Both the position numbers and the translations under genes were made by a program. Below, piece by piece: positions 920 to 22,643 of a DNA stretch of 25,345 nucleotides; positions within the stretch are counted from its first letter, which is position 1; the number at the start of each line of letters is the position of its first letter. Source of the stretch: a virus. Taxonomy: Duplodnaviria; Caudoviricetes. The DNA is taken from positions 1 to 25,345 of IMG/VR virus record IMGVR_UViG_3300037704_000023; one strand, given 5' to 3'. Under the pieces are notes generated by a model. The model searched no databases. It was given only the letters and a program-made list of their open reading frames with translations, and was not told where the DNA came from.

Positions 920-1918
920 TCAGGCGACTGCAGCCGAGAGGAACACGCCGAGGTCGGTACCGACGACCTTCATGTCGTAGGTCTGCTCGGCCTCGATGCG
1001 GTCCGAAGCGATGTGCTCCATCCGGAACCGCTTGATCTTCAGACCCTGGGAGTTGCCACCGAGGTAGCCGTTCCAGGTGAAGGTGTAGCCCGCAGCGGGG
1101 GTCTGGAGACCCGGCGAGGAGGGCGTGTGCACCAGCAGGGCCGACTTGCTGTTCGCGATGAAGGAGTAGGAAGCCGCAGCGTCCTGAGCCTTCGCGTCCG
1201 GGATCTGCGGGCCGGTGGCCTGTGTGGCGTAGCTGACCAGCACCCGGTCCACGTCGAAGAGCGTGGCGATCAGGTCGGTCGTCACGATGCCCTTCTGCGT
1301 GTACTTGATGCGGTCGATGATCGCCGGGTGGTTCTTCAGCGCGTTGATCACGTGTGCGCCCAGAACGAGGGTGTTGGCCTTCACGCCCGTGTTCTGGATG
1401 AACGTGGTCTGCAGGTCAGCCATCAGCTTGATCGGGTCCGAAGACGCCGAGTCCCACTGGATGAACTGGCTGCCGGTCGGCGAAGAAGCGACACCCGTGA
1501 GGTCGGTGCCCCAGATGCCGGTGTTGAAGTACCGGGCGTGCCAGTCCAGGTCCCGCTTGAGCAGGAGCTGGTTGGTGATGAACTGGGTGGCCTCGGAGTC
1601 GAGCTTGAACACCGTGTCGGCATTCGCGCGAACCTGGTCGTCGATGTCCTTGTGGACAGCGTAGACGTGGGCGAAGTAGCTATCCGTGTCCACGGACCAG
1701 CCGATGCCCGGGGACTCGGTCCCAGGGGCGCGGCGCTGAACATCCGTACGACGGAAGTCGGACTTGGAGTACTTCCAGAACAGGTCGCTCTGCTTCTGCA
1801 CCGGGACCTTGGGGAAGACCTTGGTGGCGATGAAGTTCGCGTTGTTCTGGACGTACGCCACGCTGACGTTGGTCAGCGGGATGTTGACGTGGAGATCGGA
1901 CTGAGCCGGGTTAGGCAT
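920..1918 (-). CDS. Major capsid protein (probable HK97 fold, no N-terminal delta domain)
   Basis: 332 aa; LTNVSVAY...FIATKVFPKVPVQKQSD N-terminus and ...GVFLSAAVA end typical of gpE-like capsids; AGAGGA RBS; follows scaffold and decoration genes; strong codon bias. Confidence 0.9.
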   Translation of the reverse strand: MPNPAQSDLHVNIPLTNVSVAYVQNNANFIATKVFPKVPVQKQSDLFWKYSKSDFRRTDVQRRAPGTESPGIGWSVDTDSYFAHVYAVHKDIDDQVRANADTVFKLDSEATQFITNQLLLKRDLDWHARYFNTGIWGTDLTGVASSPTGSQFIQWDSASSDPIKLMADLQTTFIQNTGVKANTLVLGAHVINALKNHPAIIDRIKYTQKGIVTTDLIATLFDVDRVLVSYATQATGPQIPDAKAQDAAASYSFIANSKSALLVHTPSSPGLQTPAAGYTFTWNGYLGGNSQGLKIKRFRMEHIASDRIEAEQTYDMKVVGTDLGVFLSAAVA

Positions 1919-2367: not shown

Positions 2368-3174
2368 TCAGCGGTTGTACTGCTCGGCGAGGTACTCGTC
2401 GTAGGCAGCCGGGTTATCCAGGAATGCCTTGGTGATCAGCTGCTCCTTGGAGGTGTCCCCCTTGGAGATGGACTCACTGATCTTTGCCTCCACGGACTGG
2501 AAGACATCCGAGTTGGAGCCAGCGCCGGACTTGCCGACCTCCTCGAAGAGGTCGCCCGCAGCAGAGGCGCTGTCCAGGGCCTTGGCCAGGACCTCGCAGT
2601 CCGCACGGTCCAGCGCCTCGGCGGCACGCTTGAGGACCGGGCCGAGAACCTCGGGGGCGATGCCCACCGTGTAGTTCTTGGCGACCTCGGTGTACTCGCG
2701 GTCCAGACGGAGCTGACGCTCGCTCTCGGCGGCTGCCTGAGCCTGCTTGGCGATCTCCTCGTACTCGCCCAGACGGTTGAACGCCTTGGCGATCACCTCG
2801 TCCCGGTCGGAGTCGGTGAGCGCCTTGCTCAGCTCCTCGCGGAGGTCGAAGACCTCGTCGTCGTCGGTCTCGTGGTTCTTCTGGATGACGAAGGGGTTCG
2901 CGTTCTTGCCGACCGTGGCCAGCTCGCGCTCGTCCGCTTCCTCCTCGACCTCCAGGGTGAACGCATCACCCTGAGCGTCGTACACCACTTCGCCCGGCTC
3001 CAGCGAGTCCATCTCGACAGGGTTACCCGTCGAGTCGAAGTACTCGTCCATCGTGTTCTCCTCCTCGCCGTGCCGCTTGGCGATAACGGTTCGTGCGTAC
3101 TGGTTGGCTCCCTTGTCGACAAGGGAGATCTCGTCGAACTCCATGTCGAGAAGAGCATTGACCTTGCGGGCCAT
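2368..3174 (-). CDS. Capsid scaffolding protein with N-terminal EISLVDKGAN protease-type strand
   Basis: 268 aa, acidic and helical, upstream of decoration/capsid; many hydrophobic-x-K sites; probable second in-frame start at 3051. Confidence 0.75.
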   Translation of the reverse strand: MARKVNALLDMEFDEISLVDKGANQYARTVIAKRHGEEENTMDEYFDSTGNPVEMDSLEPGEVVYDAQGDAFTLEVEEEADERELATVGKNANPFVIQKNHETDDDEVFDLREELSKALTDSDRDEVIAKAFNRLGEYEEIAKQAQAAAESERQLRLDREYTEVAKNYTVGIAPEVLGPVLKRAAEALDRADCEVLAKALDSASAAGDLFEEVGKSGAGSNSDVFQSVEAKISESISKGDTSKEQLITKAFLDNPAAYDEYLAEQYNR

Positions 3175-3215: not shown

Positions 3216-4604
3216 TTACTTCAGCGGAAGCTGCTTGTACGGTCGCCCACCCTTGCGGGAGTGCTGCTTGATCTTCTTTCCTGCCACCAGACCACCAGCG
3301 CCAGCAGCGCCCAGAGCCAGCCCCTTGGCACCGGTCCTGGCCACTGCCTTGGCACCCTGCTTGGCTGCCTTGCCGGTCATGGAGTCCATGCCCTGGACCA
3401 GCCCCTTGCCCTTCTTGCCAGCCTCGAAGAGCTTGAGACCACCAAGAGCACCGAGAGCACCACCACCAGCAGTGGAAGCGGTCGAGTAGCCTTCCAGCCG
3501 CTTCATCCGCTTCCGCTCCGGGTCGTACGCCTTCGCCACGCCAGGCTTCGGGGGCTTGGAGACGGTGGGCATCTTGGGCTGGCTGGCGGTGGGCTTGGGG
3601 GCAGTGGCAGGCTTCGCACCAGGGGTCGCCACCACAGGCGGAGTGATGAGTGACTTCAGCGGACGCATGGACGGCTGCTGCTTGCCCTCGCGCTTCTGGC
3701 CCTTCTGCGGCGCGCTGGACATCGGCATCAGTGCCTTGGCGAACGGTGAGCTGGCCACGTCCGGTGACAGCGCCTTCTTCACCTTGCGCGGCTCGTAGTT
3801 GCCAGCAGCGCGGTTCTTCCGGTGGCCCTTGTCCGCACCAGCGACGATCCCGGTATACACACCGGTCTGTGCGCCACCGACAGCACCCACGCCAGCGGCA
3901 GTACGGGTGTTCTGACTCGTGAGGCTGGACTTGGCCGAGCGCATGGCGTACTTGCGCCCGTAGCCACCGCCCTTGCCCTTGCCGCCCTTGATGGCCTTAG
4001 CACTGCCACGGGCGGCCTTCCAGGCAGCACCATGGGTCTTGGCATTGAGTACCGCAGCAGTACCGCCGAGCGCAGCAGCACCGAGCGCAGCACCGCCCAC
4101 GGTGTGCTGGGCCACCCCCTTGTACGTCTCCTTGAGGTTGGTCTTCATGGCTTCTTTGCGGCGCTTCGGCTTCACCGTCGCGCCGACCAGGTTGTCCTTG
4201 GCGCGGTCACCCTTGGAGATGTCGAACGGGTTGCTGGTGTCCATCTTGGCGACTCGCTTCTTCTTCTGCTTGACCGGACGCATTGCACGCGCCTTCTTGG
4301 ACTCCTGGGACTGGATGGCGGCGAAGTTGTACCCGCCGATGCCACCGACACCAGCAGACGCCGTAGTCAGACCAGTCGCTGCATCGCCTGCTCGCTTCGG
4401 CGCACTGGCGATGCGGTTACCCATCTTCACGCTGGCACCGCGCTTCATGGCTGCGCCACCGAGCTTCCGGGCAGCCTTACCGGCCCCGGGAGTCTTGGCA
4501 GTGGCGGCACCGAGCGCAGAGATGCCCAGGGTGGCACCAGCGCTGCTGATGTAGCTGTGCGCGCGCTTGTGACCCTGCAGCCTCTCGTCAGACCAGGTGG
4601 CCAT
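3216..4604 (-). CDS. Basic Gly/Ala-rich putative internal virion polyprotein
   Basis: 462 aa, very Lys/Arg-rich with six GxxxG-type hydrophobic segments; lies between protease and scaffold. Confidence 0.7.
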   Translation of the reverse strand: MATWSDERLQGHKRAHSYISSAGATLGISALGAATAKTPGAGKAARKLGGAAMKRGASVKMGNRIASAPKRAGDAATGLTTASAGVGGIGGYNFAAIQSQESKKARAMRPVKQKKKRVAKMDTSNPFDISKGDRAKDNLVGATVKPKRRKEAMKTNLKETYKGVAQHTVGGAALGAAALGGTAAVLNAKTHGAAWKAARGSAKAIKGGKGKGGGYGRKYAMRSAKSSLTSQNTRTAAGVGAVGGAQTGVYTGIVAGADKGHRKNRAAGNYEPRKVKKALSPDVASSPFAKALMPMSSAPQKGQKREGKQQPSMRPLKSLITPPVVATPGAKPATAPKPTASQPKMPTVSKPPKPGVAKAYDPERKRMKRLEGYSTASTAGGGALGALGGLKLFEAGKKGKGLVQGMDSMTGKAAKQGAKAVARTGAKGLALGAAGAGGLVAGKKIKQHSRKGGRPYKQLPLK

Positions 4605-4605
4605 G

Positions 4606-4977
4606 TCAGCTCTTCTTTCGCTTCATGCCCTTGATCGCGCCGACCTGGACGTTGCGGTGCGCGCCGATACCAGCGCCAGCACCACCGCCAGCGGCAGTAC
4701 CCAGGAAGGTACCGGCCTTCATCCCGGCCGGACCACTACGCGCACCAACCGCACTACCCAGAGCAGCGCCCAGGCCAGCACCGACCGCAGAGCCACCGCC
4801 AGCACGAAGCACAGCGCCGGTCTTGCGGCCCTTCTTCCCCTTCACGGCAGCGTGAATACCAGACCCCGGCCAACCGAGCGTTGCACCCAGCGCAGTACTC
4901 GCTGCGACGTGCCCGCGCTTCTTCTTGTCGGCCTTGCTGATGTCGCCATGCTCTACGCCCCAGACGCTGGTGCTCAT
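4606..4977 (-). CDS. Basic glycine-zipper protein with N-terminal SVWGVEHG tag
   Basis: Start revised to ATG 4977, which overlaps the protease stop (ATGA coupling); 123 aa MSTSVWGVEHGDISKADKKKRG... Confidence 0.75.
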   Translation of the reverse strand: MSTSVWGVEHGDISKADKKKRGHVAASTALGATLGWPGSGIHAAVKGKKGRKTGAVLRAGGGSAVGAGLGAALGSAVGARSGPAGMKAGTFLGTAAGGGAGAGIGAHRNVQVGAIKGMKRKKS

Positions 4978-5909
4978 GCGGGGATCTCCATCTCCTGTCG
5001 GCGGCCGGAGCCGTGAACGCTGAACATCGGCCGCTTGCCGTCCTTGACGAGCTGCCAGGTCTCGTCGTCGTGCACCTGCATCCCGACCCACCAGCCAGTG
5101 GGGGAGTCAGCCGGGATGCCGAGAGCTTCCTTCTTCTCCGGCGTGATGACCACGGACTCGATCAGGTCGGCCACGTGCTTGGGCTCGTCGCCCACACGCA
5201 CATGCATGTCCCCGCCCTTGCGGGACTTGGAGATGTACTTGTGTGCGGCCTTCTCGATCTCCTCGATCGTGGTGTAGTCCCCCTGGAGGTCCACCACCGG
5301 CTGACCGTCCATCTCGGTGATCGAGGCCCAGCCATAGACCTGGCGCTTGTCCTCGATGGCCTTGGAGACAGTAGCCGAGATGGTGAAGTCCTTGCCCTCC
5401 TTCTTGCGGGCGATCTTCACCTTCGGGGACTTCTCCTCGACCTTGCGCAGGACCTTGACCTTGGCCTCGGCCACCGACTTGGTCACGTCGGTCTTCTTCT
5501 TGGACTTGTCCGCGATGGACTTGGTGGACGCAGCATCAGCCGCCACATTGAAGACCTGACCGCCCACCACAGCGCCAGCTACCGGACCTGCGAACTTGGG
5601 GTTCTTCAGTGCCTTGCCCGCACGACCAGCGGCGCGACCCAGCGGCGTGGCCTTCAGCTTGGAAGGCTTGACGCGCTTGAGCCCCTTGCCTGCGGGCTTG
5701 GCGAACTTGGCCTTGGCGTCTCGGGCCAGAGCAGGGAGCGTCAGCGCACCGAACCCGGCGGAGGCGGCGTTGGCGGCGACCAGGCCCTTGTCGGTGTTGG
5801 ACAGGCCCTCGGTCTTCTTCTTCTCGGCCTTGGCGATCTCCCAGGCCCCGTCACCGTACAGGGCCTTGGCGACCGTCTCGAAGTCGGTTACGGGGACAAG
5901 GCGTCTCAT
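4974..5909 (-). CDS. Prohead maturation protease (XkdF-like serine peptidase) with basic N-terminal extension
   Basis: C-terminal domain KRQVYGWAS...VDLQGD...EIEKAAHKY...GDMH...GWWVGMQVHDDETWQLVKDGKRPMFSVHG matches the XkdF-type pattern (His in DMH, Ser in FSVHG). Start uncertain (ATG 5909 or GTG 5927). Confidence 0.8.
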   Translation of the reverse strand: MRRLVPVTDFETVAKALYGDGAWEIAKAEKKKTEGLSNTDKGLVAANAASAGFGALTLPALARDAKAKFAKPAGKGLKRVKPSKLKATPLGRAAGRAGKALKNPKFAGPVAGAVVGGQVFNVAADAASTKSIADKSKKKTDVTKSVAEAKVKVLRKVEEKSPKVKIARKKEGKDFTISATVSKAIEDKRQVYGWASITEMDGQPVVDLQGDYTTIEEIEKAAHKYISKSRKGGDMHVRVGDEPKHVADLIESVVITPEKKEALGIPADSPTGWWVGMQVHDDETWQLVKDGKRPMFSVHGSGRRQEMEIPA

Positions 5910-6072
5910 GCCCTCATGATCCCCCACGGCTCCATACCCCTGGCACTACGTGCGACTGTAGTTCGGACAGGAGCACTGGTTATGGTCACCCGGCAGTACT
6001 CCGGCATCTACGACACTTGGGCACGTATGGCGGGTTGTTGCGGCTAGCCTGCAAGAGACGACGGAGGAGCAC

Positions 6073-6366
6073 ATGTTCGACGTGCTGGGTGTACCGGTCA
6101 ACATCTTCGAGTTGTCGGGGTGGGGACTCCTGGTGCTGTTGGTCGTAACCGGCAGGCTACGCACCTCGCAGAACGTCAAGGAAATACGAGAAGATCGAGA
6201 CGCTCGCCTAGCCGAGGCGGCAGAGTGGAAGACAGCGTGGCAGCAGTCAGAGGAGACCAAAGCTCAGCTCGTCTTGCAGGTCTCGCAACTCCTGGCCCTG
6301 GGTCAGGTCTCAGCGCACATCCTCAAGACACTGCCGCCACAAGAAGAGAAGTCGGAGACTTCCTGA
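6073..6366 (+). CDS. Membrane protein, lysis-cassette type (one TM plus coiled coil)
   Basis: GGAGGAG RBS; WGLLVLLVVTGRL hydrophobic segment followed by helical region with WKTAW; resembles actinophage lysis-cassette membrane proteins. Confidence 0.7.
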   Translation: MFDVLGVPVNIFELSGWGLLVLLVVTGRLRTSQNVKEIREDRDARLAEAAEWKTAWQQSEETKAQLVLQVSQLLALGQVSAHILKTLPPQEEKSETS

Positions 6367-6579: not shown

Positions 6580-6909
6580 TTGCTTTACTCGATCATGCTG
6601 TACACGATCGCCATCTTGCCGATGCTCGCCTTCGTCGTGCTGTACATACGCGAGTGGCCGCACATCCGGCACACGGCCGAGTCCTACCAGTTGCTGCTGT
6701 TCATCTCGCTGCTCCTGCTGATCTCCGTCAACGGGCTGCTGGTCAACGTCTTCGGCATGGACCTAGACCTGGCGCGCATCTTCAGTCGGGTACTGTCCAT
6801 CCTCGCTGGATTCACCCTGTGGTACTTCACCTATGCGTTGCTGCGCTACCAAGTGATCCCTCGATACAAGCGAGACAAGCTGCGCAAGCGGATGAAGGAT
6901 CAGGGGTAG
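6580..6909 (+). CDS. Putative holin (three TM segments, basic C-terminus)
   Basis: TTG start with AGGAGG RBS; three hydrophobic stretches; tail RYKRDKLRKRMKDQG; convergent 10-nt overlap with the MuF gene. Confidence 0.6.
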   Translation: MLYSIMLYTIAILPMLAFVVLYIREWPHIRHTAESYQLLLFISLLLLISVNGLLVNVFGMDLDLARIFSRVLSILAGFTLWYFTYALLRYQVIPRYKRDKLRKRMKDQG

Positions 6910-8942
6910 AGATCGTCCGGGTCGATGTCGAACATGTGGAACGGCATCCCCACACCCTCGTCCCGCGCGCCCCACTGGGACATCGAGCCGATGTCGCTGG
7001 ACAGCACCTTGTAGGCACCAGGGTTGGTGATGGCCCCGCCGTACTGGTCGTCGTCGAAGGTGTCCACGTTGATCTTGTTGGTCCGGCCCACGACCGGCGT
7101 CAGGCTCTCCACCATCATGGGGATCGCCAGCGCCTGAGCGATGTCGTGGGCCGAGACCGACACCTGCGCCACCGGACGCCCGCTCTCCCGGTCGTAGGCA
7201 GACAGCAGCAGGTGCTCGGAGTGCTCCGGGGTGATCCCGTGCACGGTCTCGATGGTGGCCACGTCGTAGGCGTCGTAGTCCACGTACACGGTGTGCCGAC
7301 CAATCTGCGCCTCCAGCACCGGAGAGCCTGCGGTCTCGCTGAACGTGGACCGGTCCGCGAAGTCCTCGAACAGGTCGTCGTTCTCCAGCGCGTTGTTCCA
7401 GTACTCGTTGACCGCTTGCTGCAGGGTGGAGATCCCTAGCCCCTCGACGCCAGCCGTGTAGAACGGCTGGTACTCATCGATGAACACCGTGTCCTGGTCA
7501 GGGTCCCACTCGTACGGAGCCATGATCACGTAGATCGGCTGACCGTCCGGAGTGTTCATCCAGACATCGTTGGCCGAGGCTGCTTCCAGCTCGGTCTTGG
7601 GTGCCTGGAAGGTGGGGTTGGCCTTGGCCTTGATCTTGGCCCGGATCTTCGCCTTGGCGTTGTGCTCGACGATCTGCGCTCGCTCCGGTGTCATCACCGC
7701 AGTCTTCGCCTCAGCCTGGACCTGAGCCTTGTCCCCCACGACGGCCTTCGCCTTCACGGGTGAAGCCTTCTCGCGTACCTGAGCCTTCACAGGTGAGGCC
7801 TTGGCATCGACGCGAGCCTTCGGTGGCGTGACCGGCACGAGTCGCGGTGTCGTCGGCGCGTCCAGGAGATCACTCGCCTCCGCCAGCACACGCGCGACCC
7901 GGGGATCGGAGTAGTCCACTTCACGGGTCTGCACCTTGCTGCGACGGGACTCCGTCTCGGAGAAGCGCCCCTTGCGGTCGCGGTCGTAGCGGTCCTGGCC
8001 ACGCGCCTTGGAGATCACGCCCCAGGCTGACTTGGTCAGCTCCAGCTCCGGGCGCTCGATGACGATGTCCCCGACGTAGGTGACCAGCCGGATGTCGCAC
8101 CGGCAGTTGGTGTGCGCGATGGGCGAGGAGATGACCTGCCCGTTGGGCATGGTGAAGTCTTCGCTCACCGGCACCCGGGCCTCGTGCAGCGGACCACACA
8201 GCGGGCACACCCGCTCGTCATCGGCAGTGACCCACTCCTTCTCGGCCGTGATCTCCAGCCGACCGGTCTGGGAGAGGTAGGCCCAGTACATCGCCTTGGC
8301 GGTGTTCTTGGTGATGAACGCCTCGGACTCCCCGATGGCCTTGGCCCGGCTGATGATGGCAGCGGCAATCATTCGATCGATCCGGCCGACGATCGTCTTG
8401 GGCACGTCGCGTGAGGTGAACGCCGTGGGGCGGTCGCTCATCCACACGTTGACCAGAGCCTTCATGGTGCGCGGTGCCACACCGAACGCATCGACAACCC
8501 GCTCGATGGCGACACGCGCGACAACCTTGCGATTCATCTGCGCGTTGATGCCCTCCACCATGGACTGGGTCGAGACCTGGTGGATGTTGTCCCCGAGCTG
8601 TACGGCGTAGCGCTCTGCGTTCTTCCGCACCCACGTGAGATCCGGTGCGGAGTTGCCAGCCTCGTGCAGCCCTATCACCAGACCGGTAGCCAGGGCAGGA
8701 GCAGCCACAGCAGCCCACCTGGGCAGGAACAGCATGGCAATGCGCTGGGACAGCTCCTGCATCGCTGCAGGGCCGTCACGGCGCACAGACGCCTCTCGCA
8801 GCCTGCGCCGGAAGATCATCCGGTACAGCCCGAAGGCAGCCCCCAGAGCGAGGGCTACCTCCGTCAGGCTGGTCGAACGCTCTCCAGCCGCTGTGATCTC
8901 CGCAGCCAGCCGCTCCTCGGTGTCGTTCAGTTCCTCATCCAT
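6900..8942 (-). CDS. MuF-like minor head protein with long C-terminal extension
   Basis: KEWVTADDERVCPLCGPLH...PIAHTNCRC is the MuF (SPP1 gp7-like) signature; followed by about 390 aa extension (tags, Lys/Ala linker, acidic domain). Confidence 0.85.
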   Translation of the reverse strand: MDEELNDTEERLAAEITAAGERSTSLTEVALALGAAFGLYRMIFRRRLREASVRRDGPAAMQELSQRIAMLFLPRWAAVAAPALATGLVIGLHEAGNSAPDLTWVRKNAERYAVQLGDNIHQVSTQSMVEGINAQMNRKVVARVAIERVVDAFGVAPRTMKALVNVWMSDRPTAFTSRDVPKTIVGRIDRMIAAAIISRAKAIGESEAFITKNTAKAMYWAYLSQTGRLEITAEKEWVTADDERVCPLCGPLHEARVPVSEDFTMPNGQVISSPIAHTNCRCDIRLVTYVGDIVIERPELELTKSAWGVISKARGQDRYDRDRKGRFSETESRRSKVQTREVDYSDPRVARVLAEASDLLDAPTTPRLVPVTPPKARVDAKASPVKAQVREKASPVKAKAVVGDKAQVQAEAKTAVMTPERAQIVEHNAKAKIRAKIKAKANPTFQAPKTELEAASANDVWMNTPDGQPIYVIMAPYEWDPDQDTVFIDEYQPFYTAGVEGLGISTLQQAVNEYWNNALENDDLFEDFADRSTFSETAGSPVLEAQIGRHTVYVDYDAYDVATIETVHGITPEHSEHLLLSAYDRESGRPVAQVSVSAHDIAQALAIPMMVESLTPVVGRTNKINVDTFDDDQYGGAITNPGAYKVLSSDIGSMSQWGARDEGVGMPFHMFDIDPDDLYP

Positions 8943-11900
8943 CAGCGGCTCGGACGCCAGTTGTCAGACCCGAAGATGGACTCGATGGCACTGCGGGCGA
9001 ACTGCCCCAGCTCTCCAGCCTGGTCGGACCCCACATAGACATCATTGGCCAGCTCCTCGGCTCGATCGATGTCCCCGTTGCGTACTGCGATGGCCACGGA
9101 ACGCAGACCACTGGTGACGGGGTTGTCCGGCCCGTCCACTCCAGCGATGGCCTGGGCTGCATGGTTGAGCGCCTCGACGCCGGTACGGCGCTCGGAGTCA
9201 TCGTCCAGGTTGCGGCGCGGCCAGCGGTTGGACGGCTGGACGGGCTGCGGAGCGGGACGAGGCTGGAGCTGCTGCACGCGCTCAGCGGCACCCATGCCGA
9301 CACCCTGAGCCTGGAGCGTCTGAGGAGAAGCCATGCCCCCAGTCTCCGGCATGGACGTGCCCAGTGCACGTAGCCGCTCGATGTTCTCCGCCATCCCGGC
9401 CAGGGAATCAGCCTGCTGGTTCACCAGCCGCTCGTCACCCTTGGTGTGCTGGAAGGCCCGGAAGCGGTTGCCCACCCATGCAGCAGGCAGGTCCAGCCGG
9501 GTGCGCGCCTCGGTGAGAGAGTCGATGAAGCCCTGCTCCTCACCCCGCTGCGCGTGCTGGCTGGCCCGGCCCAGAGCAGCAGCAGCCTGGCCCAGAGCGG
9601 TGTCCTCCACGTCCGGACCGACCGCCACCCCGGAGTTGGCCAGGGCGTTGTTCACCCGCTGACGCTCGTTGTCCTTGGCGGTGGCGTCCGCAGCGGGCCG
9701 GTAGGCAGCCTCGGCGAACTCACGCGGGGAGGACGCGAAGAACCCCAGGTGCTTGCTCCGGTCGAAGGCATCCCCGCCGTACTGTCCGGAGTTGACCCGG
9801 AAGCGCTCCAGGAGCTGGGTGCCCCGGGTCTTGGCCGCGTCCGTGCGGAACACGCTGATGACCTGGCTCAGCTCGGTGACCAGTGCCTCCCGGTCGGTGG
9901 GGTTCTCCCAGATCTCCTCGGGCTTGCGAGCGCCGCTCTGCACGGAGTTGAGCATGGGGTACACCCGCGCGGCCTCCTCGGTGCTGAAGTCCACCTCGTC
10001 GTCCGCCAGCTTCACCAGGTCCACGGTGGCGTCCCGCGCCTGCTGGGTGCGCTCCACCCGTGCGGCCGACTCGGCCACTGCCTGCTGGGTGTTTGCCGGA
10101 CGGGCTGCGGTAGCCCCACCCCCACCACCGGTGGTGCTCTCACCAGCGACTTCACCCATCATGTCGTCGCGACGCCGCGTCTGCCCGCGCGTGGGGTTGT
10201 TCTCCCAGTTGCTGAAGTTGGTGAACGCAGCCGGGGTCTTGCCGGTGGTCTCCCCGCCCTGGGTGTACGTGCCCGCGCCAGCGACGTGCCGGTCGTAGTA
10301 GCCCTCCAGCACCTCCTCCGGACGGTTGTACCGAGGCGCGACGTAGCCCCGGTCCGCCTCGCGGGTGAACCGCTGCATGAGCCCGTTGGGCGAGTCGGTG
10401 CGCTCACCCGCAGCGTTCAGCGCCTCCTTGCGGTGCATGAAGGAGACCGAGTCGATGTAGTACGGGTACTGCTCGCGCAGCGCCTCCAGGGACGCCGCGT
10501 AGCCTTCGCCGTCGAGCTGGTAGAAGCGCGAGGTCTTGGTCTCCATGGCCTGGTCGATCAGGTCGGCCCGGATGCGGTTGTACTCCTTGCGCCCCCGGTC
10601 GGTGCCCATCTCAGCACCGCCACGTGCCTTGGCGTCGATGGCCTCCAGCTCACCCGTAGTCAGCTGAGGGGTCTCCTTGTAGTCCTTGATCCGACGCTGG
10701 AACTCCGCCTGACGCTCAGCCTGCGTGGACCACCCGGTCATCTCCTCCTCGACCTCGGAGAAGATCTCGGCCCGTGCCTCGCGGCTGATCGGCTCCCGCT
10801 CGACCTGACCGTTCTTGATGGTGTCCAGCGTCTTGGCGTAGCGGTCCACCATCTGCGCGGCCTTGTCGTTGAACCGGCGCGCGCCCCGGAAGTCGTCCGA
10901 GAAGTTGACCGTGAACACACCGGAGTTGGACACCACGGTGACCCGTCGTGCTCCGGAGACCAGACCGGTGTACACATCCTCGGTGGTCAGCCCACCCTTG
11001 GAGCGGGTCCGAACGTACTCCCCGCCCTTGAGGTTGTTCAGGTTCTTGAGGTTGAACGGCAGGTAGTGGTCGTCCGCGAAGCCCACGGCCTGCACCTTGA
11101 CCTGTCCGTCAGCCCCGACGATCACGCCCTCCGAGGGCGGGATACGCCCGGACTTGCGCTGGATCTCGCTCAGGCGAAGGCTGGGCAGCCGGTTGAACAG
11201 GTAGCCCACCGAGGCACCAGAGGTGCGCAGCATCTTCTCCTCGGCCGGGAGAGCCTCCCCACCACCGTCCCGCCGGAGCTGAGTCTGGCGTGCGGTGAAC
11301 AGCTCGGCGTCCACCTTCCGCTCGGTGCCCCGGTAGCGGTAGGCCGTCTTGCGCATGTGCGGGCCGACGACCTTCTCCGCCTCGGGACCGTAGCGGCCGA
11401 CGAACTCCCCGAAGGCGGCAGCGGCCTGGGTCTTCGAGCCCGGAGCGGAGACGGTGCCCAGGAGCTGAGAGCCCGCCTCGATGCGGCGGTAGGTACGCGC
11501 GTTCGTCCCTGTGGGGTCGTTGCTCGCGTCGTTCCACTGGTCCGCGAAGGCAGAACCACCACGCTGCACACCCTGTACCCCGCGCTGTGCCCCACGCCCT
11601 GCGGTCCCACCGGCCAGGGTGGAGACCACGTCGAACGAGGCGTTGCCCGCCATCGAGCCCGGACGCTCGTAGCGGATCGCGACGACATCCTGGCGCTTGG
11701 GGTTCCAGCCCTTGATGGAGTCCGGCGAGCCGCCCTCGATGGTGGCCAGCGCCTGACGCCCGGTGGAGCGATCCTGCACCACGGCCTGCGGGTTGCGCCC
11801 GCCCGAGGTGACCATGCGGTCCATGGCGTCCGCCAGCGCACCGTACTGCTGCTGGTAGGCACTGCGCTCCTTGGAGCTGAGCCTGTCCGTCTTGCGGTAG

Positions 11901-12286
11901 GTGCCGGAGCGCCGGGCTACGAAGGCAGCGCTCTGGATGCCCTGATCCCGCTCCTTGGCCTTGGGCATGGCCCGCTTGGTGCGGTCCGTGCGCACCCGCG
12001 ACTCCACCGTGGAGAACCGGCCGGACTTGTCGCGGGTGTACTCGTCGTCACCGAATGCCTTGACGATGGGCACCAGGCGCGGGTCGGCGGAGGCGAGACG
12101 CTTGTGGATGCGCTGCACCAGCCCGTCCACCGTACGCCGGTTGCCAGCCAGATCTTCGTGCAGCATGCCGTAGGCCACGTTGGTGATGAAGGACTGCGCA
12201 GATGCGTCGTCCATCTTCATCACCAGGTCGTAGGCCCAGGCTGCGGCGCGGGTGTTGAGTTCCATGTCTACCTCCGCGTCCATCAT
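8942..12286 (-). CDS. Large putative internal/ejected virion protein with degenerate JAB/MPN-like segment
   Basis: 1114 aa, coupled to MuF by TGATG; shares a 24-aa motif with MuF. Gene is well supported, function is inference; exact start uncertain. Confidence 0.7.
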   Translation of the reverse strand: MMDAEVDMELNTRAAAWAYDLVMKMDDASAQSFITNVAYGMLHEDLAGNRRTVDGLVQRIHKRLASADPRLVPIVKAFGDDEYTRDKSGRFSTVESRVRTDRTKRAMPKAKERDQGIQSAAFVARRSGTYRKTDRLSSKERSAYQQQYGALADAMDRMVTSGGRNPQAVVQDRSTGRQALATIEGGSPDSIKGWNPKRQDVVAIRYERPGSMAGNASFDVVSTLAGGTAGRGAQRGVQGVQRGGSAFADQWNDASNDPTGTNARTYRRIEAGSQLLGTVSAPGSKTQAAAAFGEFVGRYGPEAEKVVGPHMRKTAYRYRGTERKVDAELFTARQTQLRRDGGGEALPAEEKMLRTSGASVGYLFNRLPSLRLSEIQRKSGRIPPSEGVIVGADGQVKVQAVGFADDHYLPFNLKNLNNLKGGEYVRTRSKGGLTTEDVYTGLVSGARRVTVVSNSGVFTVNFSDDFRGARRFNDKAAQMVDRYAKTLDTIKNGQVEREPISREARAEIFSEVEEEMTGWSTQAERQAEFQRRIKDYKETPQLTTGELEAIDAKARGGAEMGTDRGRKEYNRIRADLIDQAMETKTSRFYQLDGEGYAASLEALREQYPYYIDSVSFMHRKEALNAAGERTDSPNGLMQRFTREADRGYVAPRYNRPEEVLEGYYDRHVAGAGTYTQGGETTGKTPAAFTNFSNWENNPTRGQTRRRDDMMGEVAGESTTGGGGGATAARPANTQQAVAESAARVERTQQARDATVDLVKLADDEVDFSTEEAARVYPMLNSVQSGARKPEEIWENPTDREALVTELSQVISVFRTDAAKTRGTQLLERFRVNSGQYGGDAFDRSKHLGFFASSPREFAEAAYRPAADATAKDNERQRVNNALANSGVAVGPDVEDTALGQAAAALGRASQHAQRGEEQGFIDSLTEARTRLDLPAAWVGNRFRAFQHTKGDERLVNQQADSLAGMAENIERLRALGTSMPETGGMASPQTLQAQGVGMGAAERVQQLQPRPAPQPVQPSNRWPRRNLDDDSERRTGVEALNHAAQAIAGVDGPDNPVTSGLRSVAIAVRNGDIDRAEELANDVYVGSDQAGELGQFARSAIESIFGSDNWRPSR

Positions 12287-12292: not shown

Positions 12293-12589
12293 CTAGCCCA
12301 GGGCCTCTTCGACCGTGAGCACGCGCTGGCCCTTGGTGGGCGCGTGCATCGTTTCACCATCTCTGGTGATCTCCAGCTCCACCAGATAGCTGCCCACCGG
12401 CAGCGTTCCGTCCAACTGCCAGAACACGATCCCGGACGGCGGATCCGGGATGAGGATGTCATCGGTGGTGTCTATCGGCGCACCGGCACTGTTCTCCACC
12501 TTGAGCACCACATCGGCGTCCACGAGCGAGGTGCTGGCCCGCCAGCCGATCTTCCGGGAGTCCCCGAACTTCACCGTCATCTCGTTCAT
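12293..12589 (-). CDS. Small beta-rich structural protein (BppU N-terminal-like)
   Basis: 98 aa; VKFGDS...GIVFW...GSYLVELEIT..G...HAPT.G...LTV pattern; ATGA-coupled to the 954-aa gene. Confidence 0.6.
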   Translation of the reverse strand: MNEMTVKFGDSRKIGWRASTSLVDADVVLKVENSAGAPIDTTDDILIPDPPSGIVFWQLDGTLPVGSYLVELEITRDGETMHAPTKGQRVLTVEEALG

Positions 12590-15450: not shown

Positions 15451-15456
15451 GGGAAC

Positions 15457-15807
15457 CTACGACGCAGCGACTGGGATGGCGATGGTCAGCTTGATCTGAC
15501 CCTGAGGGTTGATGGTGGTGGTGGCGCTCAGCGGGTTGCCCCCACGGAAGGTGCCCGAGGTCACGGCGGTCCACACACCGAAGTGCGTGTACGTGCCCGG
15601 CGGAACATCGAACGTCACCTCACCAGCAGTGGCAGTACCCGAGGACGCGGCACCGAAGGACAGGGCCTTGCGCGCGTACGCGGGCGTGCCACCAGTGGCC
15701 TCAGCGGCACCTGTGGTCCCTGGGTCGGCGGTGTGCAGCGAGACGTACACCAGGCGGGCTGCCTCGAAGTCCGCGATGGCATTACGCTCCGCGACTGTCA
15801 GCGGCAT
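15457..15807 (-). CDS. Small virion structural protein (fibre-module type)
   Basis: 116 aa; VSLHTADPG...E.TGG..YARK...FDVP...THFGVW.A.T.G.F pattern common in phage tail/fibre modules; AAGGAG RBS. Confidence 0.7.
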   Translation of the reverse strand: MPLTVAERNAIADFEAARLVYVSLHTADPGTTGAAEATGGTPAYARKALSFGAASSGTATAGEVTFDVPPGTYTHFGVWTAVTSGTFRGGNPLSATTTINPQGQIKLTIAIPVAAS

Positions 15808-15851
15808 GTCGTACTCCTTGCTCGTGGTCTGGCTTCACGCTATCGGTGTCG

Positions 15852-16268
15852 TCAGTCCAGGTCGCGGTTCGTCGGCTGGTTCTCCGTGAGGTTGGGGTCC
15901 GCGCTCTGACCGGTCTTGACCTCGATCATGGCCTGCTCCGCGTCGCCGAGCTCGAACACTGGTCCTGCCGCCTCGATGAGCGGTCCACCAGCAGTGCTGC
16001 CATCGTATGCAGGCGTCTGCGGGCTGCCCAGGAGGAACCTGGTGACGATGTCCGGCAGGTACTTCTCCAGCTTGCGCAGGAGGACATACCAGCCGATGGC
16101 TGCCAGACCGGTGACTGCAGCCACTGCCTCGGGCGAGTTGAGGTCCACGCCCAGGGTGTCCAGCAGGTCACTGACGCCAGGAAGATTGGTGGCCAGCAGG
16201 CCCACCAGGTAGCCCCACAGGATGGGAACGAAGGTGCGAAGGTATGCAGGAAGCTGCGGGGTGTTCAT
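15852..16268 (-). CDS. Holin-like membrane protein (two TM)
   Basis: Start revised to ATG 16268 (overlaps the endolysin stop); YLRTFVPILWGYLVGLL and AVTGLAAIGWYVLLRKLE...FLLG segments; 138 aa. Confidence 0.7.
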   Translation of the reverse strand: MNTPQLPAYLRTFVPILWGYLVGLLATNLPGVSDLLDTLGVDLNSPEAVAAVTGLAAIGWYVLLRKLEKYLPDIVTRFLLGSPQTPAYDGSTAGGPLIEAAGPVFELGDAEQAMIEVKTGQSADPNLTENQPTNRDLD

Positions 16269-16966
16269 CACTTCACTCCTGAGTAGCGACCGTGGAAGGT
16301 GCGAGCGGCACGAATGGTCAGCGGACCGATGATGCCATCGATCTCGCCGGTATACAGCGCGCCGATGATCGAGGAGGCCAGGATCCTCTGGAACCACATG
16401 ACTCGCTTGGAGTTGTAGCCACGTCTGCTGATCGAGGCCATGAGCTTGTCCCAGCCGTTCTTGGTGCCCTGGCCCCACCAGCCGTCCAGAGCCCCGTCGT
16501 ACAGCCGCGCCTTCTTCATCCAGTACTGCAGCAGTACGACCTGACGTGAACCGTCCTTGGCCCGGTTGGCGTACTCCCAGTGCCAGGGCTCGTCCTTCTG
16601 GAAGCCCGGGGCTCCAGGAGTGGCCCAGTTGGGGTTGTCCATGCCGAAGTTCTTGGCGTTGATCTGCATCCACTGGTGCTCGCGCGAGGAGCGCACGTTG
16701 ATGCCGGAGCCCAGGTCGAAGGCCAGACCCCAGCCGTGGTTGCTCGTGCCAGGCGTTGCAGCCAGGTAGCCCTTGGCAGCCTTCACTGCCACCTGCTGCG
16801 CATATGTGCGGTAGCCGTCAGTGATATGCGGGTAGTAGCCGAACTCGCGCTGGAACCTGGCACCGAGCGCGGTGAGCGCGCGTGCCGCATCCTTGGTCCC
16901 TCTGTGCTTGCTCCAACCGACCTGCGTGAGCAGCAGGTCCGGGAGCCGTCCGTTCAGGATTGCCAT
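16268..16966 (-). CDS. Endolysin: M15 (VanY-like) peptidase with C-terminal PG-binding-like repeats
   Basis: YRTYAQQ, ATPGTSNHGWGLAFD and EPWHWEY motifs; two DG..G..T repeats (LDGWWGQGT, IDGIIGPLT); ATG 16966 with AAGGAG RBS; 232 aa. Confidence 0.9.
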   Translation of the reverse strand: MAILNGRLPDLLLTQVGWSKHRGTKDAARALTALGARFQREFGYYPHITDGYRTYAQQVAVKAAKGYLAATPGTSNHGWGLAFDLGSGINVRSSREHQWMQINAKNFGMDNPNWATPGAPGFQKDEPWHWEYANRAKDGSRQVVLLQYWMKKARLYDGALDGWWGQGTKNGWDKLMASISRRGYNSKRVMWFQRILASSIIGALYTGEIDGIIGPLTIRAARTFHGRYSGVK

Positions 16967-17019
16967 GGGGAGTCTCCTTCTCTCGTCTCCATCGTGCGTG
17001 TGTGCGCAAGACCCAGACA

Positions 17020-17071
17020 GCAAGAAGCCCGAGACTCCATGGACAGATGGATGACGTCTCGGGCTTCTTGC
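17020..17071. terminator. Long inverted repeat, probable terminator upstream of the endolysin
   Basis: Perfect 16-bp arms GCAAGAAGCCCGAGAC / GTCTCGGGCTTCTTGC around 20 nt containing an inner TCCAT/ATGGA pair. Confidence 0.65.
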
Positions 17072-17104
17072 GTTGTCCCCAGGGGATGAGGAAGCAGTTT
17101 CAGC

Positions 17105-17323
17105 CTACATCCCGGTGACGGCCTGCGCCTTCTTCATCTTGCGCTTGCGTGTCTTGCCCCTGTTGCCCAGGACATGCACGGCTGAGGGGTCAGGGGACAT
17201 CTTGTGCACCACGCCCCACGCGCTCTTGGCCACCTTGCCGCCGTACTTCTTGTCCCACTTGGCGGCGATCTCCGGGTGCTTGGCGTGCATGAACTTGCGC
17301 TGCTTCTCGCTCTTGTAGGGCAT
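17105..17323 (-). CDS. Small basic protein carrying the VAKSAWGVVHK tag
   Basis: Start revised to ATG 17323 with GAGGAG RBS; 72 aa MPYKSEKQRKFMHAKHPEIAAKW... Confidence 0.8.
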   Translation of the reverse strand: MPYKSEKQRKFMHAKHPEIAAKWDKKYGGKVAKSAWGVVHKMSPDPSAVHVLGNRGKTRKRKMKKAQAVTGM

Positions 17324-17336
17324 GGTGCTCCTCAGA

Positions 17337-17504
17337 TCAGGGCTGCGGGTTGCCCTCGGCGTCACGCTCGTGCGGCGCGTAGCCAGGAGCGTGGTGGTTC
17401 GGGAACGTCGAACGGTTCACGCTGACCTTGCCCTCCAGCTCAGCCAGCTTGGCCTTCAGCTCGTCGTTCTCGGACTTCAGCTCGTCCTTGGTCTGGTCAG
17501 TCAT
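17337..17504 (-). CDS. 55-aa coiled-coil microprotein
   Basis: Below ORF-track cutoff; GGAGG RBS; MTDQTKDELKSENDELKAKLAELEGKVSVNRSTFPNHHAPGYAPHERDAEGNPQP. Confidence 0.75.
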   Translation of the reverse strand: MTDQTKDELKSENDELKAKLAELEGKVSVNRSTFPNHHAPGYAPHERDAEGNPQP

Positions 17505-17514
17505 CGTTTCCTCC

Positions 17515-17523: not shown

Positions 17524-17529
17524 CTTGAC

Positions 17530-19514: not shown

Positions 19515-19792
19515 CAGCCATCCTCGTCCTCAGTGAGAAGCTCATCCACCCGGACGCTGTTCTTGATCTTCACGTAGGTGTCCACGTACGCCTCGCCCTT
19601 GTCTCCGTTGTAGGTGACCTCGTAGTAGCGACCGTCCGGGATGGTCGTGCTCAGCAGGGCTTTCCAGTTCTGAAGGGTCTTGCTGAACCACACGACGTAC
19701 ACCTCGAAGTCGTCGCTCTCATCCGCCCGCTCCATGACCTCTTGCGTGACCAGGCGAGCAGCCTTGCTCATGTACGGCTCGAAGATGTCCAT
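19514..19792 (-). CDS. DUF6275-like phage protein
   Basis: VVWFSKTLQNWKALLSTTIPDGRYYEVTYNGDKGEAYVDTY matches this family as recalled; stop/start coupled on both sides. Confidence 0.8.
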   Translation of the reverse strand: MDIFEPYMSKAARLVTQEVMERADESDDFEVYVVWFSKTLQNWKALLSTTIPDGRYYEVTYNGDKGEAYVDTYVKIKNSVRVDELLTEDEDG

Positions 19793-20748
19793 CAGGCGAA
19801 CTTCCCGTTCCTGTCGCGGCGGTACTTGCGGTCTACGTGCTTGCTCCCAGCGTAGGCACCACCAGCACCTGCCCCGGCGACCCCGTAGCGCACCAGACGC
19901 CTGCTCCCTGAGGCGTTGGGCTTGCCAGGGGTAGGCACGTAGGGGATGCCGGACTTGCTCGACTCCTTGCGCGCGCTCTGCCCCCGGCTGCGGAAGATCT
20001 TGTCCTGGGTGCGGCGGAACTCCCTGCTGCCCCGGTCCTGACTGAACCGGTTGCCTGCGGTGTGCGATACCGTGCCACCGGTCTTCCCAGCGGCCAGCTC
20101 ACGTGCGGTGTTCTGCTTGTACGTGCCACTGAGCGTATCCACCCGGGCCTCCTCGCGCTTCAGCGAGCGAGAGCGTGAGCCGATCTGTGAGAGCCGCCAG
20201 GAGGACTTGTTGTCCGCGTGCATGACCTCGTGCCGCATGGTGGCCGGGTTCATCTGTCTGTCGCCCGCGACGATCTCGGTCTTGCCGCCCTTCTTGGACC
20301 CGGTACGGATCGGGTGCGCGTTGGGGTAGTTGGGGACCACGTGCACGGGGTACTTCTTCCCGCTCTTGGCCTGGAAGGCCGTGACGCGAGATGCCTCGCG
20401 CTTGAGTCCGCCCAGTGCTCCAGCGATCTCCTGGTGCGTCTCGTTCACCACATCGGTGCGCGCGTCCCCGCGCCTGCGGTACACACCGGAACGGTTGAAC
20501 GTACTGATCTTGGTGTCCCCCGGCCCCTCGGGGTAGGACATGTCCTTCTTCTTGGGGGCGTCCTCCACCATCTTCCTGCGGAAGCCCACATCGCTCCTGG
20601 CGGGGTGCCAGCGGTCGTCGTTCTTCATCTTCGCGCGTGCAGCCTTGAGCCGCCTGGCCCCCAGCTTCACCGCAGGCACGAACTTGTTCTGGCCCACCAG
20701 TGACTTCGAGACCGGCGTCCCGTGCTCGACACCCCAGGCACTCTCCAT
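19792..20748 (-). CDS. Basic putative internal virion protein with HExxH zincin-like motif
   Basis: Coupled to the portal stop (ATG 20748 or GTG 20751); N-terminal SAWGVEHG, RHEVMH...REEARVD, C-terminal YRRDRNGKFA. Confidence 0.7.
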   Translation of the reverse strand: MESAWGVEHGTPVSKSLVGQNKFVPAVKLGARRLKAARAKMKNDDRWHPARSDVGFRRKMVEDAPKKKDMSYPEGPGDTKISTFNRSGVYRRRGDARTDVVNETHQEIAGALGGLKREASRVTAFQAKSGKKYPVHVVPNYPNAHPIRTGSKKGGKTEIVAGDRQMNPATMRHEVMHADNKSSWRLSQIGSRSRSLKREEARVDTLSGTYKQNTARELAAGKTGGTVSHTAGNRFSQDRGSREFRRTQDKIFRSRGQSARKESSKSGIPYVPTPGKPNASGSRRLVRYGVAGAGAGGAYAGSKHVDRKYRRDRNGKFA

Positions 20749-22643
20749 CACTTCCCCCTGGGCTTCTTCGCAGCGGGCTTGCTGCGCCCTGCGGGCTTCT
20801 TCGGCATCGGCTTGGCGTCGGGCTTGGCTTTCGCCTTGGCCCGCTCGATGCGGATGGAGCGCTTCTCGTCCGCGTCCTTGGACTTGTCCTCACGGTCCTT
20901 CAGGGCGAGCTGACGCTTGAAGTCCTTCTCCTTGCCCTGGTCCTCCCGGTCCTTGATGGCCACCTTGCGCTGGACATCGTGGTCCTTGGCCTCCTCGTCA
21001 GCAGCGGCAGCCTGCGGGTCGAAGCCCTTGCCCTGCTGCTCCATGGCCATCTCGCGCTCCTTGACCGCAGCCACGTCGGGATCCTGCTCCGCCATCGCCT
21101 GGCCCTTGTAGGTGGCGAGCTGCTCGTTGGCAGCCATCTCCTCGTTGGGCTGCTCGGAAGCCAGCATGGCCTGCTCGGGCGTGTAGCCACGACCCATCAT
21201 CTCGGCCTTCTGCTGCATGCCCAGGAACTGCATCTGGGTGTCCGCGTAGCCCATGACCGCGTGCTGCTGGCTCTGCTGACGACGAATCTCCAGCAGCTCG
21301 TCCGGCATGTCGGGCAGGCGCGCAGCCTTGCGCAGGAACTCCTCCAGGTCCGCATCCGGGAACCACTCCATGCCCAGCCCACCCATGGAGGTCATGAACG
21401 AGGACAGCTCGGTGAGGTTGGGCGGGTCGATGTCGTTGGGCACGATCTTGGGCAGCTCTTCCAGCCGCTCACCGTTCAGCTCGAACAGGCGAGGGATGGC
21501 GTGCCGGTTGAAGGTGTCCGCGACCATCTGCGCGATGTGGTTCATGGCCGAGCGGAAGATGCCGCTCTTGTCCGTGTGCAGGGCATAGGAGCCCTGGCCC
21601 TCATGCCCCACCAGGATGAAGTCCGCGAGCGCCGACATCAGGATGCGCTGCTCGTAGCGGCCGATCAGGGCGTTGGTGTCGAAGGTGCGGGTACCAGAGG
21701 CGGAGAGCAGCTCGAACTCGAACAGCGGCTGCTTGGTGTTGCGGTCGTACTGGTTGGGCAGCACCAGGCCCTCGTGCTCGTCCCGCCGCACGTTGGACAC
21801 CATCTTCTTGAACGCCTCGAACACCTTGCGCTCACGCGAACCAGGAGCGGCATCCATGTACGAGGCAGGGATCTTGGCCACCGGCATACCAGCCAGGTCG
21901 CGCTCCACGCCGATGGCCTCGAACTCCTCCAGGCGCTTCTTGAAGAACCAGGGGCGGTACGCCGTACGGAGCAGGGAGACACCCTCCGGGTTGCCCTTGG
22001 CGGTGTTGGTGCGGAACAGCAGGGAGCGCTCGATGGGGATGAGCTTGCTCCCGTAGTCCGGGGGAGCAAGCTGCACCATGGCCTTGATCCCGCCGTCCTT
22101 GTCGAAGACCCAGCGGTGCATGGTCTCCTGGGAGCGGATGACGATCTTGCGCCATCCGATGCGCCCGTCGTTGTACTTCGACTTCTTCTTCGGGTCACGC
22201 TCCCAGGGACCGATGCGCTTCTTGTACACGATCTCGTGCCAGCTCCACCCGTACACCAGGCAGGTGAGGATGTCGCTGAGCATGTCGCCCCACGTGTGGG
22301 ACATGTCGTCCATGCAGGACTCGACGAAGTCCTTCGCCTCGGTGGCCTCTGGGGTGTTGTCTGTCGCCTCCACCCGGAAGTTCACCTGGCGCAGCAGCTC
22401 GGTGATGGCGAACAGCAGCGACCCCACGATGGGGTCGTTGAGCGACATCTCCTGGTAGACCTTGATGGCCTTGCGCCCGCGAAGGGCTGGGAGGAACTCC
22501 TCGTCCACGTACCCTGCGGCACGCTTGAGACCGGTAGAACCGATCTCCGTCATGGGGGAACTGGGAGGCTTGGTCTCCCAGTCGGCCACGCTCACCTCGT
22601 CGTAGCGGGTGATGTCGCTCAGGGACAGCATGGGGTTGGGCAT
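20748..22643 (-). CDS. Portal protein (DUF935/Mu gp29-like) with charged C-terminal tail
   Basis: 631 aa; EIGSTGL...EEFLPALRG...YQEM..NDP, YGWSWHEIVYK, GNPEGVSLLRTAYRPWFFK, GSYAL motifs; GGAGGAGG RBS. Confidence 0.88.
   Translation of the reverse strand: MPNPMLSLSDITRYDEVSVADWETKPPSSPMTEIGSTGLKRAAGYVDEEFLPALRGRKAIKVYQEMSLNDPIVGSLLFAITELLRQVNFRVEATDNTPEATEAKDFVESCMDDMSHTWGDMLSDILTCLVYGWSWHEIVYKKRIGPWERDPKKKSKYNDGRIGWRKIVIRSQETMHRWVFDKDGGIKAMVQLAPPDYGSKLIPIERSLLFRTNTAKGNPEGVSLLRTAYRPWFFKKRLEEFEAIGVERDLAGMPVAKIPASYMDAAPGSRERKVFEAFKKMVSNVRRDEHEGLVLPNQYDRNTKQPLFEFELLSASGTRTFDTNALIGRYEQRILMSALADFILVGHEGQGSYALHTDKSGIFRSAMNHIAQMVADTFNRHAIPRLFELNGERLEELPKIVPNDIDPPNLTELSSFMTSMGGLGMEWFPDADLEEFLRKAARLPDMPDELLEIRRQQSQQHAVMGYADTQMQFLGMQQKAEMMGRGYTPEQAMLASEQPNEEMAANEQLATYKGQAMAEQDPDVAAVKEREMAMEQQGKGFDPQAAAADEEAKDHDVQRKVAIKDREDQGKEKDFKRQLALKDREDKSKDADEKRSIRIERAKAKAKPDAKPMPKKPAGRSKPAAKKPRGK

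Follow-up and report, generated by a model that had tools for sequence, protein, structure and literature searches.

In phage T4, internal proteins carry a capsid-targeting sequence (CTS), and the gp21 protease processes IPI–III and Alt at an L/I-X-E site (PMC9026906). In a second kind of system, that of MuF proteins such as SPP1 gp7 and of polyvalent proteins, a portal-targeted minor head protein bears C-terminal cargo, and portal and MuF fusions to PBECR, ADP-ribosyltransferase, 2H and Nudix domains have been proposed to be injected (PMC6316719, PMC5576092, PMC5512222). SPP1 gp7 is named a DNA-binding protein in a title cited in PMC6316719, and RadC-like JAB domains occur in polyvalent proteins (PMC5512222). 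Delivery is proposed in PMC5512222, PMC9503650, PMC5576092 and PMC6316719, with no signal given in the available portions of these papers. The available portions of PMC6316719, PMC5576092 and PMC5512222 also mention neither a carrier–effector cleavage site nor a shared peptide for MuF toxins or polyvalent proteins, and the main text of PMC5576092 contains ‘motif’, ‘cleav’, ‘linker’ and ‘GRF’ zero times. Here we describe a short peptide, R…G[RK]F (the tag), in three proteins of an uncultured tailed phage (Caudoviricetes; IMG/VR record IMGVR_UViG_3300037704_000023, positions 1–25,345; we call this whole 25,345-nucleotide stretch the window). The three are a 680-amino-acid (aa) MuF-like head morphogenesis protein, a 1114-aa core head-module protein and a 319-aa protein with an HExxH (zincin) motif. 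To our knowledge, it is largely unexplained how non-structural proteins stay in the mature heads of siphoviruses and myoviruses and come out with the DNA. The tag is real and widespread, belongs to a head-cargo system of a known kind and has apparently not been described before; its function is inferred below from sequences and predicted structures.

The MuF-like and 1114-aa proteins share a 24-aa module (aa 310–333 and aa 74–97, respectively) that is identical at 15 of 24 positions without gaps, as an earlier note on this DNA had reported; BLASTP gives this match E=2e-4. This module is the only notable match between two otherwise dissimilar proteins; the best ungapped 24-mer in 100 shuffles of the MuF sequence against the 1114-aa protein reached 11 identities (mean 9). 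The third copy, which the same note placed at the C-terminus of the HExxH protein, does lie there and ends one residue before the stop. In all six frames of the window together, the pattern RD..G[RK]F has exactly three matches, the tag cores in Table 1. At the DNA level, the MuF and 1114-aa modules agree at 44 of 72 positions, and just two of the eight four- and six-fold degenerate codons at identical residues are themselves identical. Because DNA and synonymous sites have diverged in this way, the likeness must be old and held at the protein level. A recent DNA duplication between the two genes is ruled out by the same codon divergence.

The conserved unit is smaller than the 24-aa module. 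It comprises a predicted protease site, [IV]-x-K|, followed 7 to 26 aa later by R-x(2-7)-G-[RKQ]-[FW], a definition that follows from the variable loops of 1114-like and MuF tags (a seven-residue loop is common among the MuFs). Across 85 aligned 1114-like sequences, K76 is invariant (85/85), Ile or Val occupies P3 in 82, R85 and G89 are conserved in at least 90%, and the region is otherwise variable. The pattern with a two- to four-residue loop is present in 80 of these 85 sequences versus 9 of 1585 background windows, and four of the five misses are visible variants. In the MuF module, K312, A313, D317, D320, R321, D322, G325, F327, E331 and R333 are invariant in 13 of 13 sequences. With all loops allowed, a survey of 94 loci found the tag in 67 of 73 distinct 1114-like proteins, 49 of 52 MuF proteins and 2 of 60 portals, and in none of the capsid (0/45), scaffold (0/44), protease (0/52) or decoration (0/40) sequences. 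The motif is thus conserved in orthologues, on which the earlier note had made its proposal depend. The HExxH tag is present in 10 of 10 close sequences and in 2 of 10 from the wider locus set, one of them the window’s own; several distant HExxH relatives have a basic tail in its place.

Two narrower descriptions of the motif have to be revised. The note had given it as Y-x-RD-xx-G[RK]F, and Tyr stands at −2 in only 13 of 79 motif-positive homologues (counted by eye); in ten HExxH sequences neither the Tyr nor the Asp is invariant, and R312, G316, K317 and F318 are. Nor does the module behave as a 24-aa unit particular to each genome. Same-genome and cross-genome tags share 7.8 and 7.4 of 24 residues, respectively (p=0.26; 13 genomes in which both MuF and 1114-like tags were called, other loop lengths being left out), and high 24-aa likeness is limited to the window and its nearest relatives.

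The [IV]-x-K motif followed by a small residue is enriched over shuffled sequences 20.7-fold in scaffolds, 6.4-fold in capsids, 3.8-fold in portals and 3.5-fold in proteases, as compared with 2.3-fold in 1114-like proteins, 2.0-fold in MuFs, 1.4-fold in large terminases and 0.3-fold in decoration proteins. Within the window, the scaffold contains 10 such sites and a 954-aa probable tail protein none. AlphaFold predicts aa 73–82 of the 1114-aa protein to be a disordered or low-confidence linker that follows a helical pro-region. By analogy with the L/I-X-E site of T4 gp21 (PMC9026906), we read [IV]-x-K as a prohead-protease site that would be cut after the Lys, presumably by the XkdF-type protease encoded in the window.

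The tag also occurs far beyond this family. Its long form, WxExxHPRxxxG[RK]F, was scanned as a DNA pattern with a chance rate of ∼1 in 1e10 positions and is present in an estimated 790 IMG/VR stretches. From these, 78 distinct open reading frames (ORFs) were recovered, and 47 of them, from loci with flanks, were scanned with Pfam. The 47 include 13 portals (from two families), one MuF and two DUF2213 proteins; Pfam places ADP-ribosyltransferase, PBECR, LPD, zeta, kinase, Nudix, SNF2 or amidase domains in 24 and matches nothing in 15. The tag usually lies between carrier and effector. In polyproteins the same short site precedes every tag, one per module, with six in locus L146; because site plus tag is repeated before each module, the tag should act after cutting. 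The repeated units in L146:4974-9026, L072, L088 and L026 stand before mostly unannotated modules and mark candidate multi-effector precursors. Pfam and NCBIfam hold no family model for the tag, and 28 of the 78 tag segments match the unnamed PHROG 30637.

Portals of two families bear these tags, and the proteases in the loci concerned belong to four families. The residue at −2 to −4 of the tag is Asp or Asn in 11 of 12 DUF2213 loci and in 0 of 4 XkdF/S78 loci, all of which have Lys (p=0.003, the loci not being independent; 118 of 195 neighbouring ORFs were scanned, a protease was named in 17 of 50 loci and one Mu-like locus was left out). The site therefore changes with the protease while the tag stays. 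Tagged loci span 31–74% guanine plus cytosine (GC), so their hosts are probably distant from one another. Among cultured phages, Xanthomonas phage PhiXhv-5 bears the tag at aa 529 of its portal protein; a short tag query, an insensitive search, returned 2 cultured records only, and Burkholderia phage BgManors32 matched an LPD3 query but has no tag by pattern. The core, in the form RD..GRF.KGN, was scanned separately and found in 31 stretches, mostly in small proteins. By PHROG, 5 of 26 such proteins are small terminase subunits and one is a neck protein, and 10 of 29 such ORFs precede an ORF with a Walker-A-like motif. The loci concerned (L225–L254) encode small terminase-like proteins and one HK97-gp10-like neck protein (L238:2306-2995).

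A second peptide, M-x-S-A-[FW]-G-[VI]-[DE]-H-G (the SAFGVDHG leader), is common to unrelated proteins of the family (62 proteins in 35 of the 94 loci). A scan of the collection found it in 118 stretches and 140 proteins (loci L260–L377), all 140 of which have [IVF]-x-K at position 13–21, and their mature parts fall into 59 clusters. Leader proteins are mostly small and polycationic, and all 105 complete ones are net positive. The tag directly follows the site in 4 of 140 (as read from the 10 matches listed). In some proteins the leader peptide lies at the extreme C-terminus. The window has two intact and two degenerate copies (Table 1), and in its HExxH protein the leader is N-terminal and the tag C-terminal. 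The leader, by analogy, looks like a T4-type loading leader, and since leader and tag are separable, the tag probably serves another purpose than loading. We accordingly disfavour the tag as a capsid-loading address, because it lies after the site and a separate leader exists. The earlier note had seen the tag as a second signal that stays on the mature cargo; the presence of a separate leader that might do the loading suits that proposal.

Fragments that carry the tag and cargo that carries the leader differ in charge. Tagged fragments are neutral or acidic, with 0 of 104 above +3 per 100 aa, whereas the leader cargo is polycationic in 137 of 139 cases (some truncated). Given this pattern and the conservation, position, distribution and attached domains of the tag, we tentatively favour, at a little short of even confidence, a reading in which the tag is a DNA anchor on cargo released inside the head, a hairpin through which cut-loose, non-basic cargo would be co-ejected. 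The N-terminal part of each precursor, be it the MuF domain, the SAFGVDHG leader or, in the 1114-aa protein, the helical pro-region, would bring it into the procapsid, and the XkdF-type protease would cut it after [IV]-x-K. Each released fragment would then have the tag at its front, and this small hairpin would grip packaged DNA through its Arg and its Phe or Trp, in the manner of the GXGGRF loop of NF-YA. The cargo would be carried out of the virion along with the genome, to act at an early stage of infection. The charge pattern would fit, because the tag would supply a DNA affinity that basic cargo already has, and so would the basic tail in place of the tag in several distant HExxH relatives. 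A universal ligand is suggested by the portability of the tag across portal, capsid and protease families and by the lack of covariation. DNA is suggested as that shared ligand because the core is also present in small terminases, which recognise DNA and are not head cargo. The NF-YA family of Pfam matches 2 of 78 tag segments weakly (E=0.017).

A broader form of this proposal would make R…G[RK]F a portable signal for ejection in tailed phages generally, such that any domain behind site plus peptide would stay in the head and be delivered along with the genome. The tag would then be a mini-hairpin that reads DNA, found also in small terminases and, through convergence, in NF-YA, and in this family it would form a two-signal code with the SAFGVDHG leader. 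We regard this wider claim as possible but doubtful.

Several observations weigh against a DNA anchor. The net charge of the tag suits simple DNA binding poorly, the widespread 14-residue form being acidic (mean −1.0, n=88) and the family tags close to neutral (+0.2, n=106). The A2 helix and histone-fold partners that NF-YA requires are absent here, the Pfam match is weak, and in small terminases the core may have arisen by convergence, as a D-x-x-G hairpin. The charge counts are not independent, because two protein families underlie the contrast, and the tag is present on 13 of 58 fragments of the widespread form, as well as on the HExxH protein of the window, that are basic nonetheless. The AlphaFold model bridges R85 to F91 at low confidence, and its predicted local distance difference test (pLDDT) score is ∼50 for aa 81–90 of the tag hairpin. 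Matches to solved structures are limited to two phage tail/baseplate-hub chains, with no obvious fit (weak profile matches over residues ∼80–97: 9rku_Af, E=0.08; 8fqc_C1, E=0.25). Finally, five cultured phages with a related capsid or protease gave no site-plus-tag or leader match in the partial stretches of their head or protease regions covered.

Some of the same observations would suit a protein ligand. The tag might dock cargo on a conserved phage protein surface, such as the portal crown, the inner capsid wall or the tail channel, and queue it there for ejection. Its acidic and aromatic flanks (W-x-E-x-x-H-P) resemble a protein-binding motif, each released module has one tag, the tag is always in head modules, and the two weakly matched chains belong to tail or baseplate hubs. 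Against docking, MuF and 1114-like tags do not covary within genomes in the 13 pairs compared, the same tag occurs with different portal, capsid and protease families, the tag is often fused to the portal itself (13/47), and its core extends to small terminases. We consider docking unlikely, if still a serious contender. The tag could instead belong to the processing apparatus, either as a P′-side exosite for the prohead protease or as a mini-fold that caps the new N-terminus against trimming and so spares cargo while the scaffold is degraded. Such a role would agree with a tag that nearly always follows a site, has fixed stem residues around a variable loop, and is missing from the scaffold and protease, proteins that are usually broken down. 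It is hard to square with a distance from the Lys that varies from 7 to 26 aa, with the same tag after sites of different protease families, with the C-terminal HExxH copy, which has no [IV]-x-K site before it, and with the 140 leader proteins that have a site, of which only 4 have the tag directly after it; we judge it improbable. A tag at work only once inside the cell, where it would guide effectors to the host chromosome, RNA polymerase, ribosome or the like, would account for the 24 of 47 tagged ORFs with anti-host domains (ADP-ribosyltransferase, PBECR, zeta, kinase, Nudix, LPD). However, effectors with very different predicted targets share it, the 31–74% GC range of its loci implies probably distant hosts, and it is also found on MuF tails with no known enzyme, all of which makes host targeting very improbable in our view.

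The 680-aa MuF protein consists of a MuF domain (aa 205–284), predicted cuts at K304 and K312, the tag, a basic linker and an acidic C-terminal domain of no known family; aa 410–680 have no Pfam or PHROG match. Its own match to PF04233 (E=1.4e-6) scores 29.5 bits against a cut-off of 29.6, and PF04233 is found in 9 of 10 MuF homologues, alongside PHROG head morphogenesis matches. The 1114-aa protein comprises a predicted helical pro-region (aa 12–75), the disordered site, the tag, a JAB/deaminase-like domain and a helical C-terminal part. It has 412 homologues among 8000 candidates scored and no Pfam or PHROG match, and its gene usually lies between those for portal (upstream in 45 loci) and MuF (downstream in 59). 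Its core, aa 386–462, is modelled at a pLDDT of 82.8 and aligns with DddB (Z 8.0, root-mean-square deviation (rmsd) 2.4 over 82) and RadC (Z 6.0, rmsd 2.6 over 76; VIA-align). Most of the top matches are JAB or deaminase chains, with Z near the level that the tool calls common, and the model thus indicates a JAB/deaminase-like fold. The core has none of the zinc ligands (H-x-H…D or H-x-E…C-x-x-C); R-x-R and E-D are invariant instead, with no conserved Cys in 50 sequences. Nucleic-acid binding by this core would be a guess from the model. This highly conserved JAB/deaminase-like domain is part of a core head gene found in hundreds of uncultured phages. Five of the 120 homologues listed (P0011, P0028, P0033, P0040 and P0101) have an added AAA ATPase (PF00004 + PF17866). 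PDB sequence searches with alignments of the 1114-aa protein, its core and the HExxH protein gave nothing significant; whole-protein fold searches gave nothing at E<=0.001 in PDB and only uncharacterised viral proteins in BFVD, and ESM Atlas had no usable named match for the core. The HExxH protein has no Pfam, PHROG or PDB sequence match; H174, E175, H178, E200 and E201 are invariant in 10 of 10 sequences, the HExxH helix and downstream Glu expected of a zincin.

By Pfam and PHROG matches, the window is the minus-strand head module of an uncultured high-GC tailed phage, with a Mu-type portal, an XkdF-type protease, a probable scaffold, and decoration and capsid genes (Table 1). Many relatives of the 462-aa Gly/Ala/Lys-rich protein have the SAFGVDHG leader, at either end. 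Two small membrane-protein genes, one of them holin-like (PF23778), lie on the plus strand between MuF and protease (6073–6366 and 6580–6909), far from the VanY-type endolysin gene at 16268–17023. Portal and 1114-aa genes adjoin in most relatives; here they are separated by ∼7.5 kb (12293–19792, minus strand) with tail-fibre-like, Gp80, endolysin, GDPD and DUF6275 genes and the HExxH gene. The sequence at ∼17530–17620 resembles a tRNA gene region. Related contigs extend to ∼80 kb or more. No cultured homologue of the MuF or 1114-aa protein was found by tblastn, and no RNA run is among the sequencing runs listed. The host is likely actinobacterial, because the best full portal matches among cultured phages are Arthrobacter phages, the endolysin matches are mostly actinobacterial phages, and one relative with tags is on a metagenome-assembled-genome contig labelled Microlunatus.

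Table 1. Coordinates of head-module genes, tag copies and leader copies in the window
Feature	Position	Strand	Remarks
Major capsid protein	920..1918	-	PHROG 1005, E=1.4e-88; no tag
Probable scaffold	2368..3174	-	10 [IVLF]-x-K sites; no tag; assigned from its position between protease and capsid genes
462-aa basic Gly/Ala/Lys-rich protein	3216..4604	-	4 xK sites
Small basic protein	4606..5091	-	family leader at 4933-4968; no tag; true start probably just upstream of the leader
XkdF-type prohead protease (S78_2)	4974..5927	-	Pfam PF14550, E=1e-18; 7 sites within itself
MuF-like head morphogenesis protein, 680 aa	6900..8942	-	PF04233 at 29.5 bits (cut-off 29.6); PHROG head morphogenesis
MuF copy of the module	7944..8015	-	predicted cut after K312; tag core 7962-7982
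Degenerate leader-like stretch (K-SAWGV-ISK)	8007..8033	-	directly before the MuF tag; likeness to family leader judged by eye
1114-aa core head-module protein	8942..12286	-	412 homologues; AlphaFold model
JAB/deaminase-like fold, aa 386-462 of the 1114-aa protein	10901..11131	-	AlphaFold model, structure alignment
1114-aa protein copy of the module	11996..12067	-	predicted cut after K76; tag core 12014-12034 (R85-F91)
Short basic ORF	17105..17365	-	two xK sites flank a degenerate leader (17201-17227)
319-aa basic HExxH (zincin-motif) protein	19792..20751	-	leader 20704-20742; tag 19798-19818; HExxH 20218-20232
Portal protein (Mu-type)	20748..22643	-	Pfam PF06074, E=1.7e-38; no tag

A short retained tag would make head retention and delivery testable by a two-residue mutation in a cultured phage. 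Among unannotated genes it also points to candidate injected anti-defence proteins, and it could be of use in phage-based protein delivery; if a portable ejection tag is real, the injected proteome of a phage would be readable from sequence. Apart from the tag, the window adds the SAFGVDHG leader as a clean second signal, as well as a core head protein that is large and conserved and has a zinc-less JAB/deaminase-like fold.

Effectors fused to portals or to MuF proteins have been described before, as have T4 leaders (PMC5512222, PMC9503650, PMC5576092, PMC6316719, PMC9026906). New are the variable-loop core, the separate leader, the covariation of P1 with the protease, the charge pattern and the links to small terminases and NF-YA. 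No description of a retained R…GRF tag was found in the literature covered, which included few subscription papers and no supplements (those of PMC5512222 could define the header). The available text on T4-type internal proteins likewise describes no retained tag (PMC9026906). Unlike known MuF toxins, the MuF tail and 1114-aa protein of the window match no toxin or LPD family. The 1114-aa core resembles DddB and RadC in predicted fold, with R-x-R and E-D in place of the zinc ligands of JAB/RadC proteins and cytidine deaminases.

The likeness to NF-YA is by analogy only. The GXGGRF motif of NF-YA reads the minor groove, with Arg and Phe essential (PMC12101057, PMC11802806). The tag shares the R-x-x-x-G-R-F spacing, and some tag homologues have R-G-x-G-G-R-F, a sequence found in 0 of the 3 window copies. 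NF-YA is eukaryotic and sequence-specific and needs its A2 helix and a histone-fold dimer, whereas the phage tag tolerates loops of two to seven residues; aa 73–82 of the 1114-aa protein are predicted to be disordered, and none of the 25 window proteins has a histone-fold match. T4 and this family both place short shared peptides on unrelated internal proteins and have a three-residue site with a hydrophobic P3 (L/I-X-E in T4, predicted I/V-x-K here), and in both the scaffold would be cut many times and the cargo near an end. The SAFGVDHG leader fits this pattern, as a short shared N-terminal peptide on unrelated proteins that ends at a protease-type site. The P1 residue here is Lys and the protease is XkdF-type. 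The T4 CTS is a propeptide N-terminal to its site and is removed, whereas the R…GRF tag lies 7 to 26 aa after the Lys, or at the C-terminus, and would stay on the cargo.

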